64,000 nt of DNA from an uncultured Candidatus Saccharibacteria bacterium (lineage in GTDB: Bacteria; Patescibacteriota; Minisyncoccia; Minisyncoccales; GWA2-38-27), in assembly GCA_964447515.1 (NCBI GenBank), contig CAYUSS010000004.1, forward strand, positions 532 to 64,531, read 5' to 3'. The number at the start of each line of letters is the position of its first letter. The first letter of the stretch is position 1. The translations under genes and the position numbers were made by a program. Below are positions 15,482-37,634 of this stretch, in pieces. The notes under the pieces are model-generated. The model did no database searches and had not been told where the DNA came from. It worked only from the letters and a program-made list of their open reading frames with translations.

Positions 15482-16939
15482 ATGAAAATACATTTTATTG
15501 GAATTGGGGGTATAGGTGTTTCGGCTCTTGCTCAATATTATTTGGCAAAAGGTCATAAAGTCAGTGGTTCTGATTTAGTTTCATCTGAAACTACTGATTT
15601 TTTAAAGAAAAAAGGAGCTAAGCTTTTTATTGGAAATCATCAGGGAAAAAATCTGCCAAAAGATGTTGATTTAGTAATTTATAGTCCGGCAATTTCAGAA
15701 AGTAACCCCGAACTTCTAAAAGTTCGCAAGTTACAGGTTTTGAGTTACCCCCAGGCATTAGGAAAGCTAACAAAAGAATATTTTACAATCGCTGTTTCCG
15801 GAACTCACGGAAAGAGTACCACTACTGCAATGATTTCTTTGATTTTAATAAAGGCAGGGCTTGATCCTACGGTAATTATTGGCACTAAATTGAAAGAATT
15901 TGGTCAAACTAATTTTAGAATAGGAAAGAGTAAGTATCTTGTTATTGAGGCAGATGAATGGCAGGCCTCTTTTTTGAATTATTGGCCTCAGATTATTATT
16001 TTAACCAATATTGAAAGAGAACATTTGGATTACTATAAAAATTTAAATCATATTCTGAGAACTTACCAGAAATTTATCGGTCATTTGTCTAAAGATGGAG
16101 TATTAGTAGTGAATGGAGAAGACAAAAATATCTCAAAACTCAAATCGAAGCCTACGGCTCGTCTACGACAGCAGAACTCAAAACCACAACTCAAAACTCA
16201 AAACTATAGTTTAAAGCAAAAAGAGGCGGAGAAATTAAGGAAAATTTTGAAAGTGCCAGGCGAACATAATGTTTACAATGCCTTAGCTGCTTTGAGCGCG
16301 GCTCGGGCTTTGAAAATTCCAGATAAAATTTCATTTAAAGTGCTCTCAGAATATAAAGGCGCCTGGCGACGTTTTGAAATAGAAAAAGCAGAAATTAGCA
16401 ATAAGAACCTCTCGCTTCGCTCGAGAACCTTGAATGTTTTCCTCGCTATGCTCGGAAAGCCATTGTCTAAAAAGATTACCATTATTTCTGATTATGCTCA
16501 TCATCCAACCGAGATAGAAGCTACTTTAAGAGCTGTCAGAGAGAAATTTCTTTACCCGCCCAAATTTTCTGGAAGAAAATTTAGGCGGTCAGGTAAAAAA
16601 ATTTGGTGCATTTTTCAGCCTCATCAATATCAAAGAACATTTTATCTTTTTCAGGATTTTGTTAAAGTTTTTAGAAAAAACCCAATTGACAAATTGATTA
16701 TCACTGATATTTATGATGTAGCCGGCAGAGAAAAAAAGAAAACAAAAAAGAAAGTGAGTTCAAAAAAAATGGTTGAAGCAATTGACAGACCTCAAACAAT
16801 TTTTTTATCAAAAGAAAAAATAATAAATTATTTAAAAAGAAATTTAAAAGGCAGGGAAGTGGTAATAATTATGGGAGCAGGGGATATATACAAGTTGAGC
16901 GAGCGACTAGCAAGCGAAACCGAGCGCCCAAAGCATTGA
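15482..16939 (+). CDS. murC: UDP-N-acetylmuramate--L-alanine ligase, carrying three different repeat-derived in-frame inserts
   Basis: IHFIGIGGIGVSALA, GTHGKSTTT, DYAHHPTEI. Inserts at about 16138-16208, 16403-16433 and 16564-16599. Confidence 0.9.
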   Translation: MKIHFIGIGGIGVSALAQYYLAKGHKVSGSDLVSSETTDFLKKKGAKLFIGNHQGKNLPKDVDLVIYSPAISESNPELLKVRKLQVLSYPQALGKLTKEYFTIAVSGTHGKSTTTAMISLILIKAGLDPTVIIGTKLKEFGQTNFRIGKSKYLVIEADEWQASFLNYWPQIIILTNIEREHLDYYKNLNHILRTYQKFIGHLSKDGVLVVNGEDKNISKLKSKPTARLRQQNSKPQLKTQNYSLKQKEAEKLRKILKVPGEHNVYNALAALSAARALKIPDKISFKVLSEYKGAWRRFEIEKAEISNKNLSLRSRTLNVFLAMLGKPLSKKITIISDYAHHPTEIEATLRAVREKFLYPPKFSGRKFRRSGKKIWCIFQPHQYQRTFYLFQDFVKVFRKNPIDKLIITDIYDVAGREKKKTKKKVSSKKMVEAIDRPQTIFLSKEKIINYLKRNLKGREVVIIMGAGDIYKLSERLASETERPKH

Positions 16940-17086
16940 ACGCTCGTTCCTCACTCGCTGCCGCTCGCTTGGAGTTTTCCACTTAATAACTTGACAAAAA
17001 TTAAACAAAAAAGCGATAATGAAATAAGCCCGACAGACCGGGCTAGGTCGAGAGAAATAAAATATTAATAAAATTTAAAAAAATCT

Positions 17087-17239
17087 ATGACAACAACAAT
17101 TATTTGGATAGTGGTAGCAGTTGTAGCAGTCGGAATAATAATTTATCTTCTATCCGGGAAAAAAGGCAAGAAAGGGGGTCCTACCGCGCCGCCAACACCG
17201 CCAACACCGCCAACACCGCCAGAGGGTCCAACGATGTAA
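17087..17239 (+). CDS. small membrane protein, 50 aa, TM plus (PPT)n tail
   Basis: MTTTIIWIVVAVVAVGIIIYLLSGKKGKKGGPTAPPTPPTPPTPPEGPTM, followed by a strong terminator. Preferred over track ORF 17104..17286 in another frame. Confidence 0.45.
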   Translation: MTTTIIWIVVAVVAVGIIIYLLSGKKGKKGGPTAPPTPPTPPTPPEGPTM

Positions 17240-17264
17240 CTTTTATTACAAAAGTAATTTGTTC

Positions 17265-17299
17265 TAAAAAAATGCTCGTCTTTTGACGAGCATTTTTTT
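17265..17299 (+). terminator. intrinsic terminator
   Basis: AAAAAATGCTCGTC-TTTT-GACGAGCATTTTTT. Confidence 0.7.
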
Positions 17300-17424
17300 A
17301 GATAACCTTCCTCGTAGGCTTTTACTCTGTTATCAAATACAAAAGTTTGCTATTATGAATAAAAAAGAAATTGGAAATTGGGAAATCCTAATTTCAAGTT
17401 TTAAATTTCTAATTTCAAAAACGT

Positions 17425-18552
17425 ATGACCAAAACATCAAAAACAATTATTTGGCTTATGACAGCCATTATCATCATCGGGGGAATTTGGTATGGCGTGG
17501 GTAGGAAGCCGGCGGAAAAAGAAGTGATTAAAATCGGAGCAATTTTGCCATTGAGTGGAGCCGCTACTTCTCAAGGAGAAAGCGAGAGAAAAGCCATAGA
17601 AATGGCAGTTAAGAAGAAAAACGCCCAAGGTGGAATTGATGGTAGAAAAATAGAAGTAATATTTGAGGATGACGCTACATCAAACAGTCCTTCTAATGCT
17701 ACAGGAATTATTAAGAAGCTTATTTATATTGATAAAGTACAGTTTATTATTGGACCTGGAATGAGTTCAGAAATAGAAGCTGTAGCTCCAATAGTTAATC
17801 AAAAAAATATCGTTATGATAGCTTTTGGCGCTGTAACTTCTCCATTTTCCAGGTTTGGTAGAAATGTTTTTACTTCTTCTGCCACATTTGCCTTAGAAAG
17901 TTATAAAATGGCTGAATTTATCGGGAAACAGAATTTTGGAAAGATAGCTTTCATTTCCGTAAATGCTGAAGCAGGATTAGAAATTAAGAAAGTTCTAGAG
18001 GAAGAATTACCTAAATATAATAGCGAATTGATAAGTACTGAATTAATAAATCTCGGGATGATAGATTTTAAAACTAATCTCTTGAAAATAAAAGAACAAA
18101 ATCCAGATGCCCTTTATGTCTTTCATATTCCAGCATTGCTCGGGATAATTACTAAACAGACAAAAGAATTAAGCATAGAAGTCCCTATTTTGACTTTCCA
18201 CAATATTGAGGACCCCTCAGCAAAGACTACTGGGGGAGATTCTTTAGAAGGGGTAATCTATACGTCATCCGTTAGAAGCGAAATTGGTAAAAAATTCTTC
18301 ACAGATTTTGAGCAAGAATATGGTTCTGAACCAAATATTTTTTCTGACTCAGCTTATGATGCAGTAAATCTTATTATTGAAGCAATTGAAGCTAAAGGAT
18401 TAGAGATAGATAAAATTCGAGAATATTTAGAAAATATTAAAGATTACCAAGGAGCTACCGGAATCATTAGCTTTGACGAAAATAGAGACGTTAAACAAGA
18501 TTATATAATCAAAACAGTTAAAAACGGCCAGTTTGTGCCGTATGGAGAGTAA
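17425..18552 (+). CDS. branched-chain amino acid ABC transporter substrate-binding protein (Peripla_BP_6-like)
   Basis: N-terminal anchor, then IKIGAILPLSGAATSQGE typical of LivJ/K-like binding proteins. Operon context with livHMGF. Confidence 0.8.
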   Translation: MTKTSKTIIWLMTAIIIIGGIWYGVGRKPAEKEVIKIGAILPLSGAATSQGESERKAIEMAVKKKNAQGGIDGRKIEVIFEDDATSNSPSNATGIIKKLIYIDKVQFIIGPGMSSEIEAVAPIVNQKNIVMIAFGAVTSPFSRFGRNVFTSSATFALESYKMAEFIGKQNFGKIAFISVNAEAGLEIKKVLEEELPKYNSELISTELINLGMIDFKTNLLKIKEQNPDALYVFHIPALLGIITKQTKELSIEVPILTFHNIEDPSAKTTGGDSLEGVIYTSSVRSEIGKKFFTDFEQEYGSEPNIFSDSAYDAVNLIIEAIEAKGLEIDKIREYLENIKDYQGATGIISFDENRDVKQDYIIKTVKNGQFVPYGE

Positions 18553-18601
18553 ACATTCGAATTATGATGTGAATTATATGCGAATTATAATGCGAATTTT
18601 G

Positions 18602-18627
18602 AAAAGCCCGCCTGCGGCGGGCTTTTT
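18602..18627 (+). terminator. intrinsic terminator / attenuator-like hairpin inside the liv cluster
   Basis: AAAAGCCCGCC-TGC-GGCGGGCTTTTT, preceded by four GAATTAT repeats at 18558-18598. Confidence 0.65.
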
Positions 18628-18667
18628 CGTTTGGAAGAAGGGCAAATTTATGATAATCTGAAACAAT

Positions 18668-19555
18668 ATGATAGTTACACAATTATTGATAAATGGAATT
18701 ATTGCTGGGTCAATTTATGCTTTGGTGGCAGTGGGTTTTTCGCTGATTTATGCCACAAATAGATTTGTTCATTTTGCTCATGGTGGTTTTGTTACTGTGA
18801 GCGCTTATTTAATTTATACTTTTTTTAGTCTTTGGGGATTAAACTTCTATGTTTCAGCCCTTTTAACTATCATCGTCGCTGGATTCTTAGGTTGGTTGGT
18901 TTATAAATTAGTTTACACGCCCTTAAAGAAAAGAAAGGCGTCAAATGCCGTTCTTTTGATTGCTTCAGTGGGACTTTTGATTTTATTAGAGAACTTAATG
19001 CTTTTGATTTTTGGCGCTGATGTTAAATCATTAGGATACATTAAAATCAAAAAGGGAATTGAGATTCTGGGAGGAATAATTACGCCTCTACAAATAGTAA
19101 TTGTTGTATTGGTAGTTGTTTTGCTTTTAATTCTCTGGTTTTTTATGAAAAAAACTCGTTTAGGCAAGACAATGAGAGCTGTGGCTGATAATCCTAACTT
19201 ATCTAATATTATTGGGATTAATGCTAAAAGAATCTGTTATTTAAGTTTTATTATTGGAACAGCCTTAGCTGGAATTGCTGGCATTTTAGTGGCTTTAGAA
19301 CAAAACATTGAGCCAATTATGGGAACAGGATTAATGATTAAAGGTTTTACCGGCGCAATTATTGGCGGTGTAACTTCTGTGCCAGGATCCGTTCTTGGTA
19401 GCTATCTCCTCGGATTAGTTGAAAACTTTGGCATCTGGTTTTTACCATCTGGCTACAAAGACGCTATTGCCTTTGTGCTATTGTTCATCTTTTTGCTTTT
19501 TAAACCAACCGGCATCTTAGGATTAAGAGGAAAATATAAAGAACAAAAAGTATGA
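18668..19555 (+). CDS. livH: branched-chain amino acid ABC transporter permease
   Basis: 295 aa, polytopic, LivH-like (..GKTMRAVADNP..). Confidence 0.85.
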   Translation: MIVTQLLINGIIAGSIYALVAVGFSLIYATNRFVHFAHGGFVTVSAYLIYTFFSLWGLNFYVSALLTIIVAGFLGWLVYKLVYTPLKKRKASNAVLLIASVGLLILLENLMLLIFGADVKSLGYIKIKKGIEILGGIITPLQIVIVVLVVVLLLILWFFMKKTRLGKTMRAVADNPNLSNIIGINAKRICYLSFIIGTALAGIAGILVALEQNIEPIMGTGLMIKGFTGAIIGGVTSVPGSVLGSYLLGLVENFGIWFLPSGYKDAIAFVLLFIFLLFKPTGILGLRGKYKEQKV

Positions 19556-20427
19556 TAGAAGCGTATTTCATCCATCTTTTAATAATCATTGGCATTTATA
19601 TCATCTTAGCCACCAGTTTGAATTTAGCTCTTGGTTATACTGGTTTGCTTAATTTGGGACATATTGCCTTTTTTGGCATTGGTGCTTATGTTTCAACCCT
19701 GCTGAGCGTAAATACTTCTTTGCCCTTTTTGCTGATATTTATTCTTGCCGGTTTTGTGGCTTCTATTTTTGGTTATCTTTTAATGCTGGCTACCAACAAG
19801 CTTAGGGGTGATTATTTGGCTTTGGCAACTTTGGGATTTAACTTTGTTATTTATTCTTTGTTTTTAAATTGGACATCATTGACCCGTGGTCCTTTGGGCA
19901 TTCCCGGAATTCCAAAACCATCTATCTTTGGTTTTGTATTTCAATCCAATTTGTCTTATTTAATCTTTGTAGCAGTGATTGCTTTTTTAGTGGTTGGTTT
20001 TCTTCATCTTTTACTTAAATCTTCTTATGGAAAATTATTAGAGGCAGTTAGAGATAATGAATTAGCTTGTAAAGTTTTGGGTAAGAATACTTTTAAGATG
20101 AAGTGGCAGGCAATGGCTGTTTCAGCTTTTTTCGCTGGCATTGCCGGGTCGCTCTACGCCCATTATATCACTTTTATTGACCCTTCCAGTTTTTCCCTTT
20201 ATGAAATAATTTTAATTTTAACCATTGTTTTAGTTGGCGGATTAGCAACTCTAAAGGGTTCTATTGCAGCTACTGTTATTATTTTACTTATTCCTGAAGT
20301 TCTAAGATTTTTCGCTCTGCCTTCTTCAATTCTCGGTCCTGCCCGCCAAATCATTTACGCTCTACTTTTAATCCTAATTTTAATGTATCGCCCAAGAGGA
20401 TTATTTGGTAAGGTTGACCTTGGGTGA
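19552..20427 (+). CDS. livM: branched-chain amino acid ABC transporter permease
   Basis: 291 aa, polytopic, LivM-like (..LNLGHIAFFGIGAY..). ATGA overlap with livH. Confidence 0.85.
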   Translation: MIEAYFIHLLIIIGIYIILATSLNLALGYTGLLNLGHIAFFGIGAYVSTLLSVNTSLPFLLIFILAGFVASIFGYLLMLATNKLRGDYLALATLGFNFVIYSLFLNWTSLTRGPLGIPGIPKPSIFGFVFQSNLSYLIFVAVIAFLVVGFLHLLLKSSYGKLLEAVRDNELACKVLGKNTFKMKWQAMAVSAFFAGIAGSLYAHYITFIDPSSFSLYEIILILTIVLVGGLATLKGSIAATVIILLIPEVLRFFALPSSILGPARQIIYALLLILILMYRPRGLFGKVDLG

Positions 20428-20441
20428 GGATTTTAAAAACC

Positions 20442-21518
20442 ATGAAAAAATCAATCATCATTTGGATTATTATCATAATTGTTATAATCGGAGTAATTGC
20501 TGTTGTGAATTATAAAAAACCGGTTCCGCGAGAAAAAGAAAAATTAGAAGTTGCCATTATTATTCCGCTTACCGGCCCCGCTTCTCCAACGGGTGAAGAT
20601 TTCTTAAATGGGCTGCTTTTAGCACAGGAAAAATTTAATCCCGATATAATTTTACATGTAGAGGATAGTAAATCTAATGCTAAAGATGGAATTACAGCCC
20701 TGAAAAAACTTCTAGATACAAAAGACATCGACGTGATTGTTTCTTTGCAAAGCGCGGTTGTTATCCCTCTTCTTAGTGTAGCGGAGCAATATGGGAAGCC
20801 TTTAGTCGCCACAGCAATTGCTCAGGACGAATTTGCTCAAAAAAGTAAAAATGCCTTTCGTTTATTCCCACCTGCGAGACAATACGCAGCTATGGCAGCA
20901 GAGTTTGCAGATAAGATGGGTTTCAAAAATGTTTCAATTTTGACTATTCATGATGAGTACGGAGAATCTATAAGAGAACATTTCAGGGAAAATTTTAAAG
21001 GAAACATCCCTCATGAAGAAAACTTTGAAATACCAGAACGGGATTTTAGAACTATTTTAATCAAAATTTCAGATTCTGAAGCGGTCTACTCTGTTGGTTA
21101 TAATATTCATTATGTTAGCTTATTCAGACAGCGCGAAGAATTAGGCAAAGACATTATTTTTATATCCAACCAAAACATGACGAGTAATTTTGTTAGGATA
21201 GAGGTTGGCAACTTATTAACGAATGCATATGCAACCGTGCCTGAATCAACATTAGTTAATGAAAAAACAAGAGAATTTGTGGAGGAATATAATAAAAAAT
21301 TTGTTCAGGAGCCCGACTGGGGCGCTCCCTTTGGATACGATATGTTGTTGGTGCTTGATGCTATACAAAAGAATGAAAAAAATCCCATTGATGCCCTTCA
21401 TGAAATTAAAATTGATGGTCTGAATGGGCACATCTTCTTTGATGAAGATGGTGAAGCCAATATCCCGCTTGTGATTGTTGAAGCCGAAAACGGAGTTATT
21501 AAAGAAGTCAAAGAATAA
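20442..21518 (+). CDS. second ABC substrate-binding protein (Peripla_BP_6-like)
   Basis: Anchor helix, then AIIIPLTGPASPTGE. Start at ATG 20442, with GTG 20424 as an alternative. Confidence 0.7.
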   Translation: MKKSIIIWIIIIIVIIGVIAVVNYKKPVPREKEKLEVAIIIPLTGPASPTGEDFLNGLLLAQEKFNPDIILHVEDSKSNAKDGITALKKLLDTKDIDVIVSLQSAVVIPLLSVAEQYGKPLVATAIAQDEFAQKSKNAFRLFPPARQYAAMAAEFADKMGFKNVSILTIHDEYGESIREHFRENFKGNIPHEENFEIPERDFRTILIKISDSEAVYSVGYNIHYVSLFRQREELGKDIIFISNQNMTSNFVRIEVGNLLTNAYATVPESTLVNEKTREFVEEYNKKFVQEPDWGAPFGYDMLLVLDAIQKNEKNPIDALHEIKIDGLNGHIFFDEDGEANIPLVIVEAENGVIKEVKE

Positions 21519-21519
21519 T

Positions 21520-24697: not shown

Positions 24698-26716
24698 ATG
24701 ATGATGAGAACAAAAATTTTCTTAATTTCTTTTATTTTAAGTTTAGCTTTCTGGTGGGGGATAAATAGTTTGGTAGAGAATTTAGAAGATTTTTTATTTT
24801 GGCAGGAAATATCTAAACAGCCGGGAATATTTACTGCCAAGGCAAGTCAACAAATTCCTAGAAACGAAGTAGAGAGATTAAGGTTTGAAAGACTACAAAC
24901 CGAATTAAAAAATTTAAAAATTGAGGCCAAAGCTGCAATTTCGGTTTTGATAAATGGTAATGGAGAGGAAAGAATTCTTTTTGGAAAAAATACTGACCAG
25001 AGATTATCAATTGCTAGTTTGACCAAATTAATGACCGCCCTTATTGTTCTGGAAAATTATGACCTTTCAAGAGAAATTACGATTTCTAAAGAAGCTATTA
25101 ACCAGCCGGGGGATTTTGGGAAATTAGAAGCAGGAAAGAATTTTCCGGTGAGATATTTACTTTATCCCTTATTAATAGAATCAAGCAATGATGCTGCTTT
25201 CTCTTTAGCCAATGATTACGAAGAGATGACAGAAGAAAAATTTGTTGAGTTGATGAATTTGGAAGCCCAAAAAATGAATCTGGAGAATACTTTTTTTGTT
25301 AATTCTACCGGTATTGACCCCAAGGAACCGGAAACCGAAATAAACAATGAGACGTTTAACGTCTCATGTGAGGGAAATTATTCAACTGCTGCTGATTTGG
25401 TTAAATTTACTAAAGAATTATTTAAAAAACCCTTAATTTGGGAAATTCTTTCTACCCCGGAATTTAATCTTTATGGACCAAAACTTATTAATACTAATGA
25501 GCTTTTAGAAGAATCTCTCGGTTGGTCGAACAGAATTATTGGAGGGAAAACCGGCGAAACCCCTCAAGCTAATGGTTGTTTTCTTTTAGTTCTTAAAACC
25601 CCTCAATCAGATTACTTAATAAATATAGTTTTGGGTTCAAACGACCGCTTTGGAGAAATGCGAAAATTATTAAATTGGCTGGAGAAAAAAGAAGAAGTAA
25701 ACCCCGTTAGAGATTCCGAGAGTAGAGAAGAAGCACAGAAAAAGGGTATCTCTAACGGGGCAAAAACTTTTGACCCGGCTTTATTGGAGTGGGAAGAGAT
25801 AACCTCTAATGCTCCCTGGTCTCCAAGAGACTCCCATGGTACTGTAGTTTTTCAAAATAAAATTTGGTTAATGGGAGGATTAAATGGAAATGGGTTTCAA
25901 GATAAAAATGGCAATGTTCCTTATTGGAGAGTACCTCATTATAGTGATGTTTGGTCTTCAAAAGACGGAAGAAATTGGCAGCTTGTTACTAAAAATGCTC
26001 CCTGGGGTAAAAAAAGGTCAATGCAAGCCATAGTTTTTAAAAATAAAATCTGGTTAATTGGGGGCTGGGGACCGGAAATTGGATATTCAAATGATATCTG
26101 GGTTACAGAAAATGGAATTGATTGGGAAAAGATAGAACCAAAAGGAGAATTACCGGCAGTGGAAGGAGACCAGTTAGTTGTTTTTGAAGACAAATTATGG
26201 TTAATTGGCGGAGTAAGATACGACGAAAGAAAGGAAAAAAATTATGTTTGGGTTTCTGAAGACGGCATTAATTGGACTGAAGCTACTGAAAGAGCGCCTT
26301 GGTCGCCGAGATGGGATCATACGGTAACCGTATTTAAAAATAAATTGTGGCTTATTGGCGGTATGAATTTAGAGGGAGAAATTTACCAGGATGTCTGGAG
26401 TTCTCAAGATGGGAAAAATTGGTTATTAGTTACCGATAATCCGCCTTGGCGGGGGAGACAAGGGCATGGCTCGGTAGTTTTTCAAAATAAAATTTGGATT
26501 ATTGGAAGACTTAATGGCAAAAGTACTGGTGGAGATAATGATGTTTGGTATTCAGAAGATGGTTATACTTGGGGAAAAACCCAAAAAAATGCTCCCTGGT
26601 TAGGCAGGGAAGATATTGGGGTTTTGGTCTTTAAAGATAAGATATGGGCATTAGGAGGAATGGATGGTAACTCGGAATGGAAAAATGATATTTGGTTTTC
26701 AATTTTCTCTCCTTAA
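24698..26716 (+). CDS. D-alanyl-D-alanine carboxypeptidase (S11) fused to a C-terminal Kelch-type beta-propeller
   Basis: SxxK SLTKLMT, SSND, and a KTG-like motif (GGKTGET). C-terminal half has about 6 repeats of W(S/G)PR..H..VVF.NK(I/L)WL(I/M)GG. The linker at 25701-25760 is a palindromic element. Confidence 0.75.
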   Translation: MMMRTKIFLISFILSLAFWWGINSLVENLEDFLFWQEISKQPGIFTAKASQQIPRNEVERLRFERLQTELKNLKIEAKAAISVLINGNGEERILFGKNTDQRLSIASLTKLMTALIVLENYDLSREITISKEAINQPGDFGKLEAGKNFPVRYLLYPLLIESSNDAAFSLANDYEEMTEEKFVELMNLEAQKMNLENTFFVNSTGIDPKEPETEINNETFNVSCEGNYSTAADLVKFTKELFKKPLIWEILSTPEFNLYGPKLINTNELLEESLGWSNRIIGGKTGETPQANGCFLLVLKTPQSDYLINIVLGSNDRFGEMRKLLNWLEKKEEVNPVRDSESREEAQKKGISNGAKTFDPALLEWEEITSNAPWSPRDSHGTVVFQNKIWLMGGLNGNGFQDKNGNVPYWRVPHYSDVWSSKDGRNWQLVTKNAPWGKKRSMQAIVFKNKIWLIGGWGPEIGYSNDIWVTENGIDWEKIEPKGELPAVEGDQLVVFEDKLWLIGGVRYDERKEKNYVWVSEDGINWTEATERAPWSPRWDHTVTVFKNKLWLIGGMNLEGEIYQDVWSSQDGKNWLLVTDNPPWRGRQGHGSVVFQNKIWIIGRLNGKSTGGDNDVWYSEDGYTWGKTQKNAPWLGREDIGVLVFKDKIWALGGMDGNSEWKNDIWFSIFSP

Positions 26717-26768: not shown

Positions 26769-27866
26769 ATGCCGGAAATTACCATAAATGTTATTAAAAT
26801 TTTTTTTCTGGGAGCAGTTGCTTTTATTTTAGCTTTTTGGTTAACTCCGATTTTAACCCATTTTTTATATAAACATAAACTCTGGCGTAAAGAAGTTAGA
26901 ACTAAATCAATAGATGGAAAAGAACTTCCTTTTTTTCAAAAATTTCATGGCAAAGGAGAAACTAATATCCCAAGGTTTGGAGGACTACTTATTTGGGGGA
27001 CTACTTTGATTTTAGCTATTTCTTTCTTTTTGCTTTCAAAGACTAATATCTGGTGGTTTCAAAGATTAAATTTTTTAAGCAGGTCCCAGACCTGGCTGCC
27101 TCTTTTTGCTTTGGTTATAGCTTCTTTGGTTGGATTATTAGATGATATTTTGCAAGTTTTTGGCTCGCCCTTCCAAGTTTTTTTTCGAAAAATTTGGGAG
27201 GGTAAAGGAAAATATATTGGCGGCGGCTTAAAATTAAGATATCGCCTAATTTTGGTTGCTTTAATTGGATTAATTGGTGGCTGGTGGTTTTATTTTAAAT
27301 TGGGCTATACTGCTATTCATATTCCAGCCAACGGCGACTTTTTAATTGGGGCTTGGTACATCCCTTTCTTTGTTCTGGTAATGCTCGCAACTTATAGCGG
27401 AGGAGTGATTGACGGCTTGGACGGCTTGGCTGGAGGGGCTTTTGCTTCAATTTTCGCTGCCTTTGCTGGAATTGCTTTATTCAAAGGACAAATTGATATC
27501 GCTGCTTTTTGTGTTGTAATTGTGGGAGCGATTTTGGCTTTTTTATGGTTTAATATCCCTCCAGCCAGATTTTATATGGGAGAAACAGGAATATTGGGAC
27601 TTTGCTGCGCTTTAACCGTAATAGCTTTTTTAACTAATTCTGTTTTGGTTTTGCCGATAATTGGGTTTTTATTGGTTATTGAATCTGGTTCAGTGATTCT
27701 TCAACTTCTTTCAAGAAAGATTCGTCATAAGAAACTTTTTCTGGCCGCTCCTATCCATCATCATTTTGAAGCCAAAGGCTGGCCTCATTATAAAATCACA
27801 ATGAGGTTTTGGGTTATCGGCGTTGTGATGGCGATAATAGGCGTTGCCATAAGATTATTAGGCTAA
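26769..27866 (+). CDS. mraY: phospho-N-acetylmuramoyl-pentapeptide transferase (carries an in-frame palindromic insert)
   Basis: Polytopic, with GLLDDILQVF and NIPPARFYMGETG. Insert at 27168-27202 encodes PFQVFFRKIWEG. Confidence 0.9.
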   Translation: MPEITINVIKIFFLGAVAFILAFWLTPILTHFLYKHKLWRKEVRTKSIDGKELPFFQKFHGKGETNIPRFGGLLIWGTTLILAISFFLLSKTNIWWFQRLNFLSRSQTWLPLFALVIASLVGLLDDILQVFGSPFQVFFRKIWEGKGKYIGGGLKLRYRLILVALIGLIGGWWFYFKLGYTAIHIPANGDFLIGAWYIPFFVLVMLATYSGGVIDGLDGLAGGAFASIFAAFAGIALFKGQIDIAAFCVVIVGAILAFLWFNIPPARFYMGETGILGLCCALTVIAFLTNSVLVLPIIGFLLVIESGSVILQLLSRKIRHKKLFLAAPIHHHFEAKGWPHYKITMRFWVIGVVMAIIGVAIRLLG

Positions 27867-28011: not shown

Positions 28012-29373
28012 ATGAAATTGTTCAAAGATAAAAAAGTAACCGTAATGGGACTGGGATTGCACGGCGGTGGAGCAGGAGTGGCTAAATTTTTCTCTAAGCA
28101 AGGGGCAAAAGTTTTAGTAACCGACCTTAAGACAAAAAAGCAATTAAGAGAATCTCTCCAGAAACTCAAAGACCTGCCTATAAAATTTGTCTTAGGCGGG
28201 CACCGAGAAGAGGATTTCATCAATACCGATTTAATTATTAAAAATCCGGCTGTTCCCAGCAACTCCCCTTATCTTAAAATTGCCAGAAAGCATGATATTC
28301 TTATAAAAACTGATGTCAGTATATTTTTTGACCTATGCCCAGCCCCAATTATCGGAGTTACCGGCACTAAAGGAAAATCAACTGTTGCCTTTCTTATCTA
28401 TCTTTTTTTAACAAGCAAATATCCAGATACAATTCTGGCCGGAAACATTGGCCTATCCCCCTTAGAAGTTTTTTCTAAAATTCAAAAATTTGGCAGCAGG
28501 GGCAAAGTGGTTTTAGAACTTTCCAGTTTTGAACTTGAAGATTTAAAAAAGAGTCCAAAAGTAGCTGTAATTACTACTATTTTTCCAGACCATTTAGACA
28601 GGTATAAGAATTTTAAAGATTATATCAGAGCAAAAAAATCAATTTTCAAATATCAGAACGAAAATGATATTTTGGTTTTAAATTATGGTAATCCTGAAGC
28701 ACGAAAGCTTGCCTCAGAGACTCGCTCCAAAGTTTATTTCTTTACCCCGTTAAATAGTTGCAAAGCAAATTTAACGGGGTTTAAGGATTCCAATGTTTCA
28801 GCTGCTCTTGCTGTTGCTAAAATTTTCAAAATTCCTAAAAAAAATATTGGAAAGGTTCTTTCTAATTTCAAAGGCCTTCCTCATAGGCAAGAACTAATTG
28901 CTACCAAGAAAGGAAAGAAATATATTAACGATGCCACCGCTACCACCCCTCAATCAGTGATATTAGCAATAAATACATTTAAAAAGAGGTTTCCTGGTTC
29001 TAAAATTATTCTTATTGCTGGCGGTTTGGATAAAAATTTAAAGTATAAAGGTCTAGCCGAAGAGATTCAAAAAAAAATAGATTGTCTTATTCTTTTGCCA
29101 GGTACTGCTTCTGATAAAATTAGAAAAGAGTTAAAGAGTTTTACCCCGTTAGAGATTACGGGAAAGGAAAGAAAACACAGATTACACAAATCTCTAACGG
29201 GGTTTAAAATATATCCTGTTAATTCAATGAATCAAGCAGTAAAAAAGGGTTCAAATTTAGCTAAAAAAGGTGACCTTGTTTTGCTTTCTCCTGGAGCCGC
29301 GAGTTTCAACTTATTTAAAAATGAATTTGATAGGGGAGAGCAATTTCTCAAAGCAGTAAAAAAACTCAAATAG
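28012..29373 (+). CDS. murD: UDP-N-acetylmuramoylalanine--D-glutamate ligase (two in-frame palindromic inserts)
   Basis: VMGLGLHGGG, GVTGTKGKST, GLPHRQE, NDATATTP. Inserts at 28744-28780 and 29153-29213. Confidence 0.9.
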   Translation: MKLFKDKKVTVMGLGLHGGGAGVAKFFSKQGAKVLVTDLKTKKQLRESLQKLKDLPIKFVLGGHREEDFINTDLIIKNPAVPSNSPYLKIARKHDILIKTDVSIFFDLCPAPIIGVTGTKGKSTVAFLIYLFLTSKYPDTILAGNIGLSPLEVFSKIQKFGSRGKVVLELSSFELEDLKKSPKVAVITTIFPDHLDRYKNFKDYIRAKKSIFKYQNENDILVLNYGNPEARKLASETRSKVYFFTPLNSCKANLTGFKDSNVSAALAVAKIFKIPKKNIGKVLSNFKGLPHRQELIATKKGKKYINDATATTPQSVILAINTFKKRFPGSKIILIAGGLDKNLKYKGLAEEIQKKIDCLILLPGTASDKIRKELKSFTPLEITGKERKHRLHKSLTGFKIYPVNSMNQAVKKGSNLAKKGDLVLLSPGAASFNLFKNEFDRGEQFLKAVKKLK

Positions 29374-32051: not shown

Positions 32052-33512
32052 ATGGCTACAATAGATGAAATTAGGAAAAATCGGCTCAAGAAACTTAAAG
32101 CAATTGAAAATGCTGGTCTTTTAGCTTATCCCAGTCAGATGAAGAGGACTCATACTTGTAGAGAGGCGTTAGAAAATTTTGCTAAATTCTCCCGGGGAAA
32201 AAAGGAGATAGTTTTAGATGGTCGGATAAGGTCTTTGAGGCAGCACGGCGGTCTTGTTTTTGCCCATATTAAAGATGGTTCAGACAGAATTCAGGTTTCC
32301 TTAAAAAGAGATAAATTAGGAGAAAAGAGTTTTCAATTTTTCTTGGATAATTTTGACATCGGAGATTTTGTTGAAATTAGAGGAGTTTTATTCAAAACGA
32401 GGAGAGGAGAAAAAACAATTGAAGCGGCTGATTATAAAATTTTGGCTAAATCTCTTTTACCATTGCCGGAAAAATGGCACGGTCTAAAAGATGTTGAAGA
32501 AAGATATCGGAAAAGATATTTGGATTTGATTTTTAATCCTGAAGTTAAAAAGAAATTTGAACTTCGTTCAGAAATTATTAAACAAATAAGAGAATTTTTA
32601 GAAGAAGAAGGATTTTTAGAAGTGGAAACTCCAATTTTACAGCCCCTTTATGGAGGAGCCAAAGCAAGACCATTTAAAACCTATTTAAATGCCCTGGATA
32701 TTGATTTATACCTGAGAATTTCTCCTGAACTTTATTTAAAACGGCTTTTGATTGGCGGTTTTGAAAAGGTTTTTGAGATTGGGAAATGTTTTAGAAATGA
32801 AGGAATGGATAGAGCCCATAATCCGGATTTTACAAGTTTGGAATTTTACTGGGCCTATGCAGATTATAAAGATTTAATGAAACTTACGGAAAAACTTTTT
32901 TCATCTTTGGTTAAAAATATCTTTGGAAATTTTAAGATAAAATATGAAGGTAGGGAGATAAACTTTAAACCTCCCTGGCCAAGAATTGAATTTACTCAAC
33001 TTTTGAAAAAATATACAAAAATCAATTTAGATGAAATTCATATTCAAGCCCTAAAAAAGGAAGCAAAAAAATTAGGGATTGAATCAAAAGGAGGGAAAGC
33101 TGAAATGGCAGATGAGATTTACAAGAAATTATGCCGTCCAAAAATCTGGCAGCCAACTTTTATAATCCATCATCCTTTAGGAGCTTTTCCTTTAGCAAAA
33201 CAGCTTGAAAAAAATCCAGAGAAGACAGCAAATTTTCAATTAGTAATAGCTGGTTTTGAATTAATTAATGCTTTTTCTGAGCTTAATGACCCCATAGAGC
33301 AAAAGAAAAGATTTCAAGAACAGGAGAAAATATTTAAAGAGGGGTTTGAAGAGGCCCAGAGAATGGATAAAGATTTTATTGAGGCCTTAGAATACGGTAT
33401 GCCGCCGGCCGCCGGTTTCGGAATGGGAATTGATAGATTAGTGACTCTTTTAACCGATTCCCATAGCTTGAGGGAAGTAATTTTGTTTCCAATAATGCGA
33501 CCAAAGTCATAA
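32052..33512 (+). CDS. lysS: lysine--tRNA ligase, class II
   Basis: OB fold followed by the class II core (FRNEG, ..ELNDP.., GMGIDRL). Confidence 0.9.
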   Translation: MATIDEIRKNRLKKLKAIENAGLLAYPSQMKRTHTCREALENFAKFSRGKKEIVLDGRIRSLRQHGGLVFAHIKDGSDRIQVSLKRDKLGEKSFQFFLDNFDIGDFVEIRGVLFKTRRGEKTIEAADYKILAKSLLPLPEKWHGLKDVEERYRKRYLDLIFNPEVKKKFELRSEIIKQIREFLEEEGFLEVETPILQPLYGGAKARPFKTYLNALDIDLYLRISPELYLKRLLIGGFEKVFEIGKCFRNEGMDRAHNPDFTSLEFYWAYADYKDLMKLTEKLFSSLVKNIFGNFKIKYEGREINFKPPWPRIEFTQLLKKYTKINLDEIHIQALKKEAKKLGIESKGGKAEMADEIYKKLCRPKIWQPTFIIHHPLGAFPLAKQLEKNPEKTANFQLVIAGFELINAFSELNDPIEQKKRFQEQEKIFKEGFEEAQRMDKDFIEALEYGMPPAAGFGMGIDRLVTLLTDSHSLREVILFPIMRPKS

Positions 33513-33682
33513 GACATAACACCCGATGTTGAGGAATTGGCGGTGAAGCCGCCAAGGCAAACATCGGGTGTTGTACGGAGAACTGTTCTCCAAATATTGA
33601 TTTTTGTTTGACATTTGTTAAAAAATAAGTTATAACAAAAGAAGAAAACAAAGAATTTTGACAATAGAATAAGGAGTGAAAA

Positions 33683-33979
33683 ATGGGAGCAATTGAGGTT
33701 GTAGATGTTTTCAGGAAAGGGAAGGTGGCTTTATCAGTAGAGCTAAGTTCTGGAGGCATTGTTTTGAGGTTCTTGAAAAAAAATGGGGAATTGAAAGTAG
33801 TTTCAAGAATCCAAGATAAAACTGTGCTTGACAAAATTCCCTGGGTCTCTGATTCAGATTATAAGGAGATGTGTAGAATAGCAGGGGACATCTTAGATGG
33901 TGTTTCCAGAGAAAACTTGAGGCAGCCAGAGTTTTCTTTATCTAGACGGGAGCAAAAGCAGCTCAAACTTCCTTTCTAA
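33683..33979 (+). CDS. hypothetical 98-aa protein
   Basis: Clean ORF with a strong SD (AAGGAG 7 nt upstream) and a TTGACA-type promoter upstream. No recognisable motif. Confidence 0.5.
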   Translation: MGAIEVVDVFRKGKVALSVELSSGGIVLRFLKKNGELKVVSRIQDKTVLDKIPWVSDSDYKEMCRIAGDILDGVSRENLRQPEFSLSRREQKQLKLPF

Positions 33980-34034
33980 TAACAGGCACTTGAAAGGGCC
34001 CAGCCACTTTTTCAAAAGTCCCAACAGGGTCCCG

Positions 34035-34063
34035 GGCGCAACTCCTCGGTTGCGCCTTTTTTT
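34035..34063 (+). terminator. intrinsic terminator directly abutting the serS -10 box
   Basis: GGCGCAAC-TCCTCG-GTTGCGCC and a T-run, then TACTATAAT 9 nt before ATG 34088. Confidence 0.65.
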
Positions 34064-34087
34064 GTTTTTTACTATAATGAAAGCAGT

Positions 34088-35353
34088 ATGTTAGATATAA
34101 AATTCATCAGAGAAAATCCGGATAAAATTAAAAATGGCTGTGAAAAGAAACAGGTCAAAGTTGACATTGGCCAGCTTTTGAAAATAGATAAAGAAAAAGG
34201 AAAGATTCAAGCAGAGTTAGAGAAATTATTGGCTGAAAAGAATCAAGCCAGTAAAAAAATTGCAGCGGCAAAAAATAAAAAAGAAAAACAGAAAATTATT
34301 TCTAAAATGCAAGTGGTTGATAAAAAAAGCGACAAGTTAAAAGAAAAATTGAAAAAACTTTGTGAGGAATTTGAAAAATTAATATATCAAATTCCTAATT
34401 TACCTTTAGATAATGTACCTGTTGGTAAAGATGAAAGAGATAATGTCATTTTGAAAAAAGTAGGAAAGAGGCCGGAATTTGATTTTAAGCCCAAAGATTA
34501 TTTAGAAATTGCTGAGGAACTTGATTTAATTGATATAAAGAGAGCAGCCAAGGTTTCTGGGACAAGGTTTGGCTATTTAAAAAATGAGGCAGTTTTATTA
34601 GAATTTGCTTTAATAAATTTAGCTCTGGGAACATTGATAAAAGAAGGATTTGCGCCAGTGATTCCGCCAGTGATGTTAAAACCAGAAATGGCTCGGGGAA
34701 CAGGCTATTTTGAAGCAGTTGACTTAAAGGAAGCTTATTATCTTCCCAAAGATAAATTATTTTTAATCGGAACATCGGAACAATCCCTTTTAACTATGCA
34801 TGCTAATGAAATTTTTGAAGAAAAAGAGCTTCCCAAAAGATATTTAGGTTTTTCTTCTTGTTTCCGAAGAGAAGCCGGTTCTTATGGAAAAGATACCAGA
34901 GGAATTTTTAGAGTCCACCAATTTGATAAAGTGGAGATGTTTAGTTTTTCTAAACCAGATGATTCTAAAAAAGAACATCAATTTTTTCTAAAAATAGAAG
35001 AAGATTTAATGAAAAAATTAGCTCTTCCTTATCAAGTGGTTAATATTTGTACCGGGGATCTTGGATTTCCAGCAGCCGCTAAGTATGATATTGAAACTTG
35101 GCTGCCAGGACAAGGGAAATATCGAGAAACTCATTCCACAAGTAATTGCACTGATTTCCAGGCTAGAAGATTAAACATTCGTTACCGAGATAAAAATGGA
35201 AAATTGAATTTCGTTCATACTGTCAATGGTACTGCTTTTGCAATTCCTAGACCCTTAATCGCTATTATTGAAAACTATCAGCAAAAAGATGGCAGTGTGA
35301 AAATCCCCCAGGTACTTCAGAAGTATATGGCTGGAAAGAAAATTATTAAGTAA
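34088..35353 (+). CDS. serS: serine--tRNA ligase
   Basis: N-terminal coiled-coil arm. Class II motifs FRRE.G..GKDTRG..RVHQF and TSNCTDFQARR. Confidence 0.92.
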   Translation: MLDIKFIRENPDKIKNGCEKKQVKVDIGQLLKIDKEKGKIQAELEKLLAEKNQASKKIAAAKNKKEKQKIISKMQVVDKKSDKLKEKLKKLCEEFEKLIYQIPNLPLDNVPVGKDERDNVILKKVGKRPEFDFKPKDYLEIAEELDLIDIKRAAKVSGTRFGYLKNEAVLLEFALINLALGTLIKEGFAPVIPPVMLKPEMARGTGYFEAVDLKEAYYLPKDKLFLIGTSEQSLLTMHANEIFEEKELPKRYLGFSSCFRREAGSYGKDTRGIFRVHQFDKVEMFSFSKPDDSKKEHQFFLKIEEDLMKKLALPYQVVNICTGDLGFPAAAKYDIETWLPGQGKYRETHSTSNCTDFQARRLNIRYRDKNGKLNFVHTVNGTAFAIPRPLIAIIENYQQKDGSVKIPQVLQKYMAGKKIIK

Positions 35354-35361
35354 CTATTTTA

Positions 35362-36132
35362 ATGGAAGAAAAAGAAGTTTTTATCAATGGAATAAAAACA
35401 AGCTATAAAATTGCAGGCCTGGGTCCTGCCGTTTTAATATTACACGGTTGGGGAGCGTCTTCAGATTCCTGGCTGCAAATTCAAAAAATTTTAGTTGCTC
35501 AAGGGTATAAAGTGATTTGTCCTGACTTTCCTGGATTTGGAAAAAGTCAAACTCCCCCCAGACCCTGGAATCTTACTGATTACGGGAATTGGCTGAATGA
35601 TTTTTTAAGTTTTCTGAATTTTAAAAAAATTTCCATTATAGCCCATTCTTTTGGCGGAAGAGTAGCTATAAAATTTGTTGTTAATTATCCTAAAAAAACA
35701 GAGAAATTAATATTGTATGCCTCTGCCGGCCTTAAAATAGAACCGGATATTGAAACAAAGATAATTCTTTTCTTAGCTAAAATAGGAAATATTATTTTTG
35801 CTTTTAAACCCCTGAGAATATTAAAAAATAGCATTAGAAAACTATTCTATATTCTTATAGGCCATAGAGATTATTTAAAAGCTGATAACATTATGAGGGG
35901 GACAATGAAAAAAGTTTTGGGAGAGGATTTATTGCCCGAGCTCTCTAAAATTAAGGTAAAAACTTTAATTGTTTGGGGCAAAAAAGATAAAATAGTTCCA
36001 GTGAAATATGCTTACATTTTTAAAGAAAATATAAAAAACTCCCAATTAGAAATTTTGCCAAAAGTCGCTCATAGCCCCCATTTAGAGAACCCGGAGAAAT
36101 TATTAGAAATAATAACCAGGTTTTTACGATGA
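35362..36132 (+). CDS. alpha/beta hydrolase
   Basis: HGWG oxyanion region, nucleophile elbow AHSFGG, and a C-terminal His (AHSPHLE). Confidence 0.75.
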   Translation: MEEKEVFINGIKTSYKIAGLGPAVLILHGWGASSDSWLQIQKILVAQGYKVICPDFPGFGKSQTPPRPWNLTDYGNWLNDFLSFLNFKKISIIAHSFGGRVAIKFVVNYPKKTEKLILYASAGLKIEPDIETKIILFLAKIGNIIFAFKPLRILKNSIRKLFYILIGHRDYLKADNIMRGTMKKVLGEDLLPELSKIKVKTLIVWGKKDKIVPVKYAYIFKENIKNSQLEILPKVAHSPHLENPEKLLEIITRFLR

Positions 36133-37634
36133 AAATATTTATTGCTGTTTTTTGGTTTTTTATTTTCATAAAATTGCTCTTTTTTTGGGTCTGGCTTTGG
36201 CAATTAAAAGAATATCGTTTAGGAAGATTCAGGGCCCACTTTGGAACTCAAAAAATAAAAAAAATAATTTTTAGTTTACATGGTATTAGATATCCTAAAT
36301 TGACCCAAAAGACCTTTATTATTTTGGTCTCTGGCATATTGATTGGATTTTTAATTTTGTTTGAGCTTTTTTCTTTACCCTCCCAAGTTTTGTTTAGCAA
36401 AATTTGGGATGGTAAACCAGAATATTTGTTTTATCTTTTGCTTCTGATTTTAATTATTTTAGCTCCAATAATTTTTTCTCTTTTAGTTTTATTTTTTCAA
36501 ATCCCTGCCTCTATTTTAATAAAGAGAATTTTAGAAAAAGCAAAAGAAAAAAGAGAAGAATTTAAAGACCTTTTAGTTATTGGCATTACCGGGAGTTATG
36601 GTAAAACTTCAACTAAAGAATTTTTAGCCACTATTTTAGAAGAAAAGTTCAAAATTCTCAAAACCCCTGAACACCAGAATACTGATCCAGGAATTGCTCG
36701 ATGTGTTTTAGATAACTTAACTTCCGAGCATCAAATTTTTATAGTGGAAATGGCTGCCTATAAATTAGGGGAAATAAAGCCACCCTGCCGGATGGTTCAA
36801 CCTAAAATTGGCATTTTAACCGGTATAAATGAGCAACATCTGGCAACCTTTGGTTCCCGGGAAAATATTATTGATACGAAATTTGAGCTGATAGAGAGTT
36901 TGCCCGAAAACGGAATTGCGATTTTTAATGGCAATAATAAGTATTGTTTTGAACTTTACAAAAAAGCCAAAACAACCAGAAAGCCAGATAACATTTTTCT
37001 GACCACGACCGGAAAAATGTTATCAACAGATATATGGGCAGAAGATATTAAAGTTGAAAAAGAATTTATTTCCTTTAAAGTTAATTCTGAGGGCGGAGAT
37101 TCGGCCAATTTTAGAGTAAATTTATTAGGCAGGCAAAATATTGAAAATATTTTGTTAGCTGTTTGCTGCGCCAAAGAATTAGGAATGAGATTAGAAGAGA
37201 TTGCCGCAGCTTGCCGGAAAATCAGACCAAAACAAGGAACAGCCCAGCTTAAAAAATCTAAGCAGAATTTAAATATTATTGATGCTACTTATTCGGCAAA
37301 CCCTGATGGAGTGATTGCTGATTTGGAACATCTAAAAAATTGGGAAGGCAAAAAAGCAATTGTAATGCCCTGTTTAATTGAGTTGGGAAAAGCCGGTCCA
37401 GAGATTCACAAAAAAATCGGCAAAAAAATCGGCCAGGTTTGCGATTTAGCCCTAATCACTACTAGAGATTACTTTCAAGAAATAAAAAAAGGAGCAATTG
37501 AAACTGGACTAAAGGGAAAAAATATTTTGTTTATTAAAAACCCAAAAGAAATTATTGAAAAATTAAATATTTTTGGCGGAGAGAATGATATAGTGCTCTT
37601 AGAGAGTAGAGTGCCAAAACAATTAATAAAATGA
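36129..37634 (+). CDS. murF: MurF-like Mur ligase (UDP-MurNAc-tripeptide--D-Ala-D-Ala ligase) with an N-terminal membrane domain of about 130 aa
   Basis: GITGSYGKTSTKE P-loop and the general Mur ligase layout. The N-terminus has about 4 TM helices and contains the palindromic insert at 36377-36413. Confidence 0.7.
   Translation: MKIFIAVFWFFIFIKLLFFWVWLWQLKEYRLGRFRAHFGTQKIKKIIFSLHGIRYPKLTQKTFIILVSGILIGFLILFELFSLPSQVLFSKIWDGKPEYLFYLLLLILIILAPIIFSLLVLFFQIPASILIKRILEKAKEKREEFKDLLVIGITGSYGKTSTKEFLATILEEKFKILKTPEHQNTDPGIARCVLDNLTSEHQIFIVEMAAYKLGEIKPPCRMVQPKIGILTGINEQHLATFGSRENIIDTKFELIESLPENGIAIFNGNNKYCFELYKKAKTTRKPDNIFLTTTGKMLSTDIWAEDIKVEKEFISFKVNSEGGDSANFRVNLLGRQNIENILLAVCCAKELGMRLEEIAAACRKIRPKQGTAQLKKSKQNLNIIDATYSANPDGVIADLEHLKNWEGKKAIVMPCLIELGKAGPEIHKKIGKKIGQVCDLALITTRDYFQEIKKGAIETGLKGKNILFIKNPKEIIEKLNIFGGENDIVLLESRVPKQLIK

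Follow-up and report, generated by a model that had tools for sequence, protein, structure and literature searches.

Cell-wall gene cluster and its palindromic segments

The stretch of DNA analysed here (the window: 64,000 nucleotides (nt) of an uncultured Candidatus Saccharibacteria bacterium, assembly GCA_964447515.1, contig CAYUSS010000004.1) has about 35% G+C and contains a dcw-type cell-wall cluster, and the closest named relatives of its MraY, MurC and MurF proteins belong to Candidatus Nealsonbacteria and other Patescibacteria. The subject of the analysis is a short palindrome, CCCKCCCAARTTTT-N7-AAAATTTRGGMGG (family B), of which the window holds three copies, spaced 10–11 kb apart, in murC, in mraY and in the N-terminal membrane domain of murF. 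The host genes and the segments concerned are as follows.

15482..16939, forward strand: murC host gene, 485 amino acids; Pfam Mur_ligase, Mur_ligase_M and Mur_ligase_C
16551..16589, forward strand: murC insertion TTTACCCGCCCAAATTTTCTGGAAGAAAATTTAGGCGGT, 39 nt in frame, encoding LYPPKFSGRKFRR; 52.8 bits
16556-16570 and 16574-16588, forward strand: arms of the murC hairpin
26769..27866, forward strand: mraY host gene, 365 amino acids; Pfam Glycos_transf_4; homologues named phospho-N-acetylmuramoyl-pentapeptide-transferase
27165..27203, forward strand: mraY insertion TCGCCCTTCCAAGTTTTTTTTCGAAAAATTTGGGAGGGT, 39 nt in frame, adding SPFQVFFRKIWEG; 58.5 bits
36129..37634, forward strand: murF-type ligase host gene, 501 amino acids, with an N-terminal membrane extension; Pfam Mur_ligase_M and Mur_ligase_C; homologues named UDP-MurNAc-tripeptide--D-Ala-D-Ala ligase
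36377..36415, forward strand: murF insertion ACCCTCCCAAGTTTTGTTTAGCAAAATTTGGGATGGTAA, 39 nt in frame, adding about PSQVLFSKIWDGK; 60.9 bits

All three sequences that an earlier note on this DNA had quoted for the murC, mraY and murF copies were found in the window. The positions it gave for the mraY copy (27168-27202) and the murF copy (36377-36413) are correct, whereas the murC copy lies at 16555-16590 and not at 16564-16599, a slip of 9 nt, and the similarity among the copies runs a few bases past the limits drawn there, to TTTA...TAAA. The reading phases were described accurately: the mraY and murF copies are read in one phase, giving PFQVFFRKIWEGK (MraY amino acids 134-146) and PSQVLFSKIWDGK (MurF amino acids 84-96), and the murC copy is read in another, giving PPKFSGRKFRRSG, a peptide unrelated to that of MraY and MurF.

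The strict palindrome pattern has two matches in the window against 0.00 expected from 100 shuffles. The isolated 10-mer CCCAARTTTT, with one mismatch allowed, occurs at chance rate (44 observed, 42 expected), and the significance therefore resides in the paired arrangement. A covariance model (R1) was built from 35 copies, of which other genomes contributed 32, and was used to scan the window exhaustively with filters off; the three copies scored 53–61 bits (E-values of 4e-14 to 6e-12), the next best match reached 19.7 bits and none other exceeded 20 bits. Their predicted hairpins have energies of -16 to -23 kcal/mol, with z of -3.9 to -7.9 relative to shuffles. The nucleotide similarity on which the earlier note relied is retained both under proper alignment and under the covariance model.

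From the A/T-rich inner stem and the chance rate of the 10-mer (44 vs 42) one could argue that the similarity arose by chance, as low-complexity convergence where the genome is AT-rich, or that it is an artefact of assembly. The full pattern, however, never appeared in shuffles, the E-values are around 1e-12 and homologous copies were found in dozens of genomes. Moreover, an identical MraY protein with the insert is encoded on contigs from the independent samples SRR9706179 and SRR9707468, and the insert is therefore not an assembly artefact; this explanation can for practical purposes be dismissed.

Insertions relative to orthologues and solved structures

A syntenic relative, GCA_964391095.1 (loci L083 and L085), carries the same genes in the same order as the window, and DNA alignment with it revealed one clean 39-nt gap at each of the murC, mraY and murF sites. 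The empty sites read GAAATTTC|39 nt|CAAAT for murC in L085, TTTTTGGC|39 nt|AAAGG for mraY in both L003 and L085, and TTTTTTCTTT|39 nt|ACCGGG for murF in L083. No target-site duplication was seen at the murC and mraY junctions, and that of murF has only a 3-nt ACC boundary ambiguity.

Among the best 120 homologues of the MraY protein, most have 352 amino acids, are insert-free and read LQVF-GKGKYIGGG, while an insert of 11–13 residues of the xFFxKIWxxK type stands at the exact site in 15 of them. In MurC, LYPPKFSxGKxRR is placed between EKF and PxKKIW in 8 of 120 homologues, the remaining 112 being without insert. The MurF insert is present in the window protein only (1 of 79 aligned), and is missing even from homologues of 74% and 73% identity. 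The N-terminus of this MurF (36129-36560) is a hydrophobic extension of about 140 amino acids with several predicted helices, which replaces the usual N-terminal Mur-ligase domain; the extension is common to all 79 aligned homologues and variable in length.

With reference to solved structures, the MraY insert has no counterpart in MraY 9zno_A, where the alignment leaves a gap immediately behind the DD motif; the MurC insert likewise meets a gap in MurC 9ir5_A, in a helix-to-strand loop at the start of domain 3. The MurF insert falls between two hydrophobic helices of the membrane extension. In MraY structures the aspartate pair lies at the cytoplasmic end of transmembrane helix 3, and the insert therefore lengthens the cytoplasmic loop between helices 3 and 4; an AlphaFold model of MraY (predicted local distance difference test score of 57) was too poor to show more than that the insert falls between two predicted helices. 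The segments accordingly correspond to gaps in close orthologues and in solved MraY and MurC, and not to conserved residues, in line with the earlier proposal of inserted DNA. The three sites, namely the MraY post-DD loop, the MurC domain-3 loop and the MurF inter-helix loop, are places that tolerate extra residues.

A palindromic family across Patescibacteria

An exact-pattern scan of one genome per species (185,579 species) yielded at least 117 matching loci; the figures that follow refer to the matches listed. Among these 117, 57 carry the outer arms CCNKCC...GGNGG, which were absent from the query, and the 57 comprise 48 named Patescibacteria, 5 unclassified "bacterium" bins and 4 otherwise labelled. 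At least 10 candidate groups of Patescibacteria are represented, among them Saccharibacteria, Nealson-, Lipton-, Vogel-, Wolfe-, Kaiser- and Yonathbacteria and Parcubacteria/Paceibacteria. The unit of about 43 nt is almost confined to Patescibacteria and is spread over many of their classes. The palindrome is hence a repeat, as the earlier note had it, yet one conserved across the phylum and not peculiar to this genome.

The consensus unit reads TTTA-CCCKCCCAAGTTTT-N7-AAAATTTRGGMGGG-TAAA with a variable loop. Its stem covaries: pair 8-36 is UA in 16 copies and GC in 11, pair 19-25 takes four Watson–Crick types and pair 20-24 several types, and the covariation score of 0.194 compares with 0.111 for shuffles (reached by 0 of 500) and at most 0.068 for slid controls. 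The two half-sites of the stem are non-equivalent, since fixed positions repeatedly show a G.T pair and a C.A mismatch. Extra copies were found near some of the seed copies: L099 and L138 have three apiece, and L114, L109 and L160 have two.

A scan of IMG/VR gave only 3 pattern matches, on which carriage by phages was rejected. No Rfam family matched at gathering score, the E-value mode giving only spurious microRNA-hairpin matches far below threshold, and no relevant palindromic or in-frame repeats of Patescibacteria, also known as the Candidate Phyla Radiation (CPR), were found in the searchable literature.

Genomic contexts and translated copies

Among 54 copies classified by context, 18 were called coding, a few of them doubtful, and the rest, about two thirds, are intergenic and occur in every arrangement of flanking genes. 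Patescibacteria genomes are roughly 90% coding, and such depletion from coding DNA is as expected if most insertions into genes are lethal. The coding copies examined are translated in all three phases and in both orientations, into peptides such as PPKFSxGKFGR, PSQILxxKIWEGK and LPNFxxQNLGG. Confirmed hosts elsewhere are UvrB, DnaG, LepA, a class II aminoacyl-tRNA synthetase and ScpA, and further host proteins are a phosphoenolpyruvate-utilising enzyme, a radical S-adenosylmethionine protein, an FtsQ-like protein and a RimK-like ligase. Cell-wall genes do share the hairpin DNA, but a specificity for them is contradicted by the UvrB, DnaG, LepA and ScpA hosts and by the mostly intergenic copies.

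In UvrB the insert (DYF|LYPPKFS..GR.|RD) lies just before the DESH motif, occupies the same site in Saccharibacteria and Nealsonbacteria genomes and faces a gap in solved UvrB. The consensus is nearly stop-free in all six frames; the TTTAGG variant would introduce TAG in the mraY/murF phase, and the mraY and murF copies both have the TTTGGG variant. With respect to host genes the copies show no orientation bias (about 7 sense and 7 antisense), nor is there any with respect to the direction of tRNA genes.

As the reading phase varies, copies lie untranslated between genes and the stem covaries, the copies are to be regarded as a DNA-level repeat and not as protein homology, which upholds the inference drawn initially from the window alone. 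The near-identical peptides of MraY and MurF would arise from reading the same DNA in the same phase. A module selected as a peptide, for instance an amphipathic membrane-interface or partner-binding motif of Mur-pathway enzymes to which the palindrome is incidental, might be favored by that common phase, by the position of both inserts beside membrane helices and by the tryptophan (KIW/LW) that is kept even in decayed MraY copies. Such a module is largely refuted and very improbable, considering that MurC is read in another phase with an unrelated peptide, that the same DNA occurs elsewhere in all phases, in both orientations or untranslated, that most orthologues lack the insert and function, and that conservation tracks base pairing and not codons.

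Patchy presence and decay among relatives

The nearest neighbours of every insert-bearing MurC are insert-free (P0254 and P0341, for example, share 86% identity), while other insert-bearing MurC proteins are at most 77% identical among themselves. The DNA of this pair has the same junction as the window murC (...TC|39 nt|C.AG..); the exact 39-nt filled/empty comparison of murC in a second lineage is that of L204 with L205. The MraY insert needs 18 Fitch changes on a neighbour-joining tree. The description of the palindrome as mobile or recombining is supported by this presence and absence among close orthologues, together with the exact 39-nt filled and empty pairs.

The closest relative at mraY, L003 (87% DNA identity), has a scar-free empty site, and the more distant L210 carries a degenerate but clearly homologous 39-nt insert with the same junction. 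Three-taxon counts of shared sites in MraY (82 vs 63 and 59) group the window with L003, and a precise, apparently seamless loss of the insert in L003 is therefore suggested by the sequence comparison. Out of 12 metagenomic loci with an insert at the MraY site, only L010 still scores with the model; since the older MraY copies have decayed, the DNA hairpin is not maintained once it is in a gene.

In other lineages the same MraY loop is occupied by different short inserts, of which some are palindromic (L027 10364-10435, L049 1233-1316 and L053 2896-3033; proteins with differing inserts are P0014, P0017, P0023, P0026 and P0040). That of L027 is the palindrome AAGGC-CAT-GCCTT, and that of L053 is a 78-nt element with termini TCGCCCCCACA...TGTGGGGGT, which are present also in the family-B copy of L010. 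The position looks like a hotspot or a place of in-situ replacement. Likewise, one MurC carries a different palindrome family at the MurC insert site.

Insertion geometry and related palindromes

The net gain at each site is 39 nt against a unit of 43 nt, as about 4 nt of the terminal TTTA/TAAA-type bases come from the target, split as 0+4 in murC, 1+3 in mraY and 3+1 in murF. A filter for reading frame alone could select 43 - 4 = 39. The left junction TTTC^TTTACCC is found in murC, in an insertion in murD and, in one alignment, in murF. The murD features and the other related palindromes in the window are listed below.

28012-29373: murD, identified by Pfam
28741..28779, forward strand: murD related element TTTACCCCGTTAAAT...ATTTAACGGGG, an exact 39-nt in-frame insertion relative to murD of L085
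28741-28779, 29143-29203 (both in murD), 25702-25760 and 54672-54708: first palindrome family of the earlier note (family A), ACCCCGTTAGAGATT...AATCTCTAACGGGGT, with its shorter relative ACCCYGTTAAAT...ATTTAACRGGGT

The murD element is a weak full-length match to the family model (19.3 bits) and belongs to another sequence family. Relative to murD of the syntenic relative, the short-family copy is an exact 39-nt insertion and the long-family copy a 54-nt in-frame insertion. The first family and the family under study have common termini, TTTACCC...GGGG(T), and the common left junction TTTC^; the 10-mer TTTCTTTACC is shared by positions 16547, 28737 and 36370. The murC and uvrB targets share TTTC^CAAR, and a TTTC/TTYC left flank is seen at murC, murD, uvrB and possibly murF, though not at mraY. 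As 21 TTTCCAAR sites in the window are unoccupied and the mraY junction differs, a fixed target TTTC^CAAR was rejected and at most a preference is left. Several families seem to use one insertion route set by their shared termini, with at most a preference for T-rich targets.

As for the route itself, classical DDE transposition is excluded because target-site duplications are absent, and a DDE-type MITE (miniature transposable element with inverted repeats) with duplication is rejected by the same junctions without direct repeats. A TA-target (IS630-like) model was rejected since its junction arithmetic misfits the murF and mraY sites. The junctions would fit either cut-and-paste without duplication or a microhomology-assisted capture of the 43-nt hairpin unit; the latter agrees with the junction arithmetic but is speculative.

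A specific mechanism for a mobile hairpin is offered by repetitive extragenic palindromes (REPs) and their REPIN arrangements, or by IS200/IS605-type hairpins; in this reading a Y1 (HUH) transposase, whose gene would lie elsewhere in the genome, would mobilise the hairpin in single-stranded form. The imperfect palindrome of REP size, the junctions devoid of target-site duplication with one apparently seamless loss, and the TTTC/TTYC left flank, which recalls a fixed 4-nt target, speak for it. However, a conserved GTAG-type head is missing, TTTC^ does not suit the junction at mraY and the TTTCCAAR sites without inserts are numerous, REPs are extragenic, and orientation is concordant with local GC skew in only 24 of 42 cases (p = 0.44), a result on which a replication-strand bias was also rejected. 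Movement by such a transposase is, on balance, quite improbable.

Further hairpins and a possible gene fusion in the window

The ORF (open reading frame) at 24698-26716 joins a Peptidase_S11 D-Ala-D-Ala carboxypeptidase and a Kelch beta-propeller in 672 amino acids, and the family-A palindrome at 25702-25760 encodes its linker, EVNPVRDSESREEAQKKGISNGAK. The syntenic relative encodes the carboxypeptidase and the Kelch part in separate genes, with a membrane anchor at the N-terminus of the Kelch protein itself, and the ORF looks like a gene fusion across the palindrome. In murC there are two more lineage-specific in-frame inserts, at 16148-16171 (8 amino acids) and 16403-16468 (22 amino acids); the longer contains CTCGCTTCGCTCGAG-type hairpins, a similar GCTCGCTTCGCTCG string is intergenic in the Saccharibacteria locus L099, and these strings may represent another repeat family.

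A LigB-like gene on the reverse strand (13079-13729) contains, at 13388-13422, the perfect palindrome ACGAGACCCGACCTCGT A ACGAGGTCGGGTCTCGT, whose arms are 17 nt long. A third hairpin family, (A)ACCCGAYGTT...AACRTCGGGT(T), occurs at 33516-33574, 44435-44470 and 48263-48306, just after or between ORFs, with one copy about 50 nt upstream of a tRNA (48356-48429). At 40016-40043 a G+C-rich perfect palindrome with 14-nt arms, CCCCCGCCCCGCTG/CAGCGGGGCGGGGG, is placed between the ORFs 38928-39977 and 40117-41013.

Proposed origin and a possible host function

We consider it likely that the copies represent one short dispersed palindromic repeat of Patescibacteria that enters genes as a 39-nt in-frame segment, its peptides being by-products of translation. 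In the proposed course of events, a stop-free block of 13 codons (39 nt) would enter the gene, while the flanking target would contribute about 4 nt of the unit. Like Rickettsia palindromic elements or REP-like hairpins, the element may be mobile or selfish; it could have been gained repeatedly, sometimes at one site, and also lost, and selection would leave only in-frame copies in permissive loops. The near-constant arms from Saccharibacteria to Paceibacteria imply a putative conserved trans-acting factor, by which the hairpin would be recognised across classes. Within a few kb of copies in L103, L111, L125, L144, L152 and L164 (6 of 54 loci, five labelled Saccharibacteria) there is a protein of about 110 amino acids without Pfam domain (WTxHSxxKMRFYxLSExRVKRI...), and in two of these loci the protein itself contains an in-frame copy. 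It was rejected as the trans factor, as conserved synteny near rplJL among Saccharibacteria loci explains its recurrence more simply.

Several observations weigh against such a mobile repeat. No transposase, recombinase or autonomous parent was found, in an analysis that included no dedicated genome-wide search for a Y1 transposase; no pair of arms encloses a gene, as in an autonomous parent bounded by arms, in about 1.5 Mb, public collections not having been searched for such an element. The density is low and patchy, this 64 kb having 3 copies and the related mraY neighbourhoods, about 800 kb together, only 2, and copies within a genome are no more alike than copies from different genomes (0.738 vs 0.721, p = 0.13), so that neither genome-specific subfamilies nor recent bursts are seen. 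Recurrent insertion at an identical nucleotide (murC, uvrB) is inseparable from an ancient insertion followed by repeated precise loss. A purely selfish repeat would seldom keep its arms conserved across classes, which suggests a constraint at the level of the host. Finally, copies in L099 (1858-2479) exactly fill the tRNA-Leu|tRNA-Val and tRNA-Phe|tRNA-Gly spacers, one in L097 (1352-1395) lies in an rRNA operon spacer, and others are found 100–200 nt upstream of rplJ in L125, L129 and L135; these recurrent, possibly orthologous positions are compatible with a function.

The main rival, suggested in part by these positions, is a host-functional, conserved cis-acting hairpin whose coding copies would be accidental spill-over spread by recombination; examples would be an RNA-processing or stabilising stem beside tRNA, rRNA and ribosomal-protein transcripts, or the site of a conserved DNA- or RNA-binding protein. 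About a tenth of the copies adjoin tRNA genes, L160 (5254-5505) has one on each side of tRNA-Arg, and tRNA processing would free a spacer copy as a discrete hairpin RNA of about 43 nt. The covarying stem, the fixed G.T pair and C.A mismatch, and the conserved arms without genome-specific subfamilies agree with such a role as well. On the other hand, there is no bias of orientation toward host gene or tRNA, no T-run follows the stem as in an intrinsic terminator, no Rfam family matches, and it would stay unexplained why many unrelated genes hold exact 39-nt insertions. The hairpin is also not universally required, because it is absent from most of the related genomes sampled and its coding copies decay. 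A primarily host-functional cis-element is thus unlikely and, as with REPs, does not exclude mobility.

Shine-Dalgarno/anti-Shine-Dalgarno pairing (GGGAGGG/CCCTCCC) was rejected as about half of the copies have GGGCGGG/CCCGCCC, and a promoter reading (TTKMCC-N17/18-CAAAAT) is weak.

Returning to the dispersed repeat, a further-reaching proposal is that the palindrome of about 43 nt serves as the substrate of a hitherto unrecognised hairpin-directed system conserved across Patescibacteria. A site-preferring mobile hairpin, or the capture of hairpin nucleic acid at breaks, would then remodel loops of essential CPR proteins. The proposal draws on the near-constant arms, the exact filling of tRNA spacers, the shared TTTACCC...GGG(G)T termini, the 39-nt geometry and the T-rich TTTC-type sites without duplication, and we hold it to be a doubtful possibility.

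Genomes of CPR bacteria are tiny and gene-dense, and their proteins carry many lineage-specific insertions. The dispersed repeat provides a DNA-level source for some of these, a translatable hairpin repeatedly adding 13 residues to loops of essential enzymes such as MurC, MraY, MurF, MurD, UvrB, DnaG and LepA, among others. Such inserts matter for annotation and phylogenomics, since through them unrelated proteins come to have spurious "shared motifs" and indels arise that are homoplasious.

Comparison with known systems

Like the REPs and REPINs of Proteobacteria, which go with RAYT transposases, the unit is an imperfect hairpin palindrome in the 20–40-nt range, multicopy, without target-site duplication and possibly constrained by a trans-acting protein. 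REPs are, however, extragenic and species-specific, have a GTAG-type head and number hundreds of copies, whereas here all window copies and about a third of those elsewhere lie in ORFs, the consensus has no GTAG, the distribution is phylum-wide and patchy with a low density, and no RAYT was identified, a genome-wide search for one not having been made. Organelle mobile hairpins (fungal mitochondrial double-hairpin elements and GC clusters) are likewise very short, spread in compact genomes and can stand in frame in genes for proteins and rRNA, but they are organellar and taxon-specific and differ in sequence and structure, so that the likeness is one of analogy only.

Other classes of repeat were compared by their features. 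On both strands the stem is followed by TAAA, CAAG or TGAA and no T-run, unlike an intrinsic terminator; the spacing is irregular elsewhere and 10–11 kb in the window, unlike a CRISPR array. The frequencies of 3 per 64 kb and 2 per about 800 kb contrast with about 1 per kb for DNA uptake sequences. Integron attC sites were compared by inspection only: their arms are RYYYAAC...GTTRRRY as against KCCCAAG...TTTRGGM here, with a G.T pair where attC has C-G, and they measure 57–141 nt and stand at cassette 3' ends near intI, while the present unit is 43 nt and lies inside genes.

MITEs known for in-frame fusions (ERIC, BOX, Correia/NEMIS and cyanobacterial elements) are likewise small, non-autonomous, inverted-repeat elements sometimes found in ORFs; they measure 50–500 bp, derive from the terminal repeats of an identifiable insertion sequence and make target-site duplications (PMC10969869), whereas the present unit is shorter, has no such duplication and showed no pair of arms around a gene in about 1.5 Mb. 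A close parallel is with Rickettsia palindromic elements (RPEs; Ogata et al. 2000, as summarised in PMC10969869), repeats of about 100–150 bp that keep the reading frame of the numerous unrelated genes holding them and lie where the protein fold allows it. As with RPEs, a dispersed palindrome is present between genes and, with unusual frequency, in frame in unrelated housekeeping genes, its peptide falling at fold-compatible positions, with no known transposase and in hosts of reduced genome (PMC10969869). RPEs form ten families (RPE-1 to RPE-10) in Rickettsia only (PMC10969869), while the present unit has 39–43 nt and no sequence relation to them, is nearly unchanged across classes of a phylum and belongs to several families that share termini and the 39-nt geometry. 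Judged by this likeness, the element is best described as an RPE analogue and not a member, being unrelated in sequence, much shorter and phylum-wide. Should it prove mobile, no in-frame palindromic element described so far would be shorter or more widely distributed, and a phenomenon up to now tied mainly to Rickettsia would gain a second independent case. As far as can be told, a palindromic repeat within genes is known from Rickettsia, whereas this element, its 39–43-nt size, its conservation throughout a phylum and the geometry shared by its families are new.

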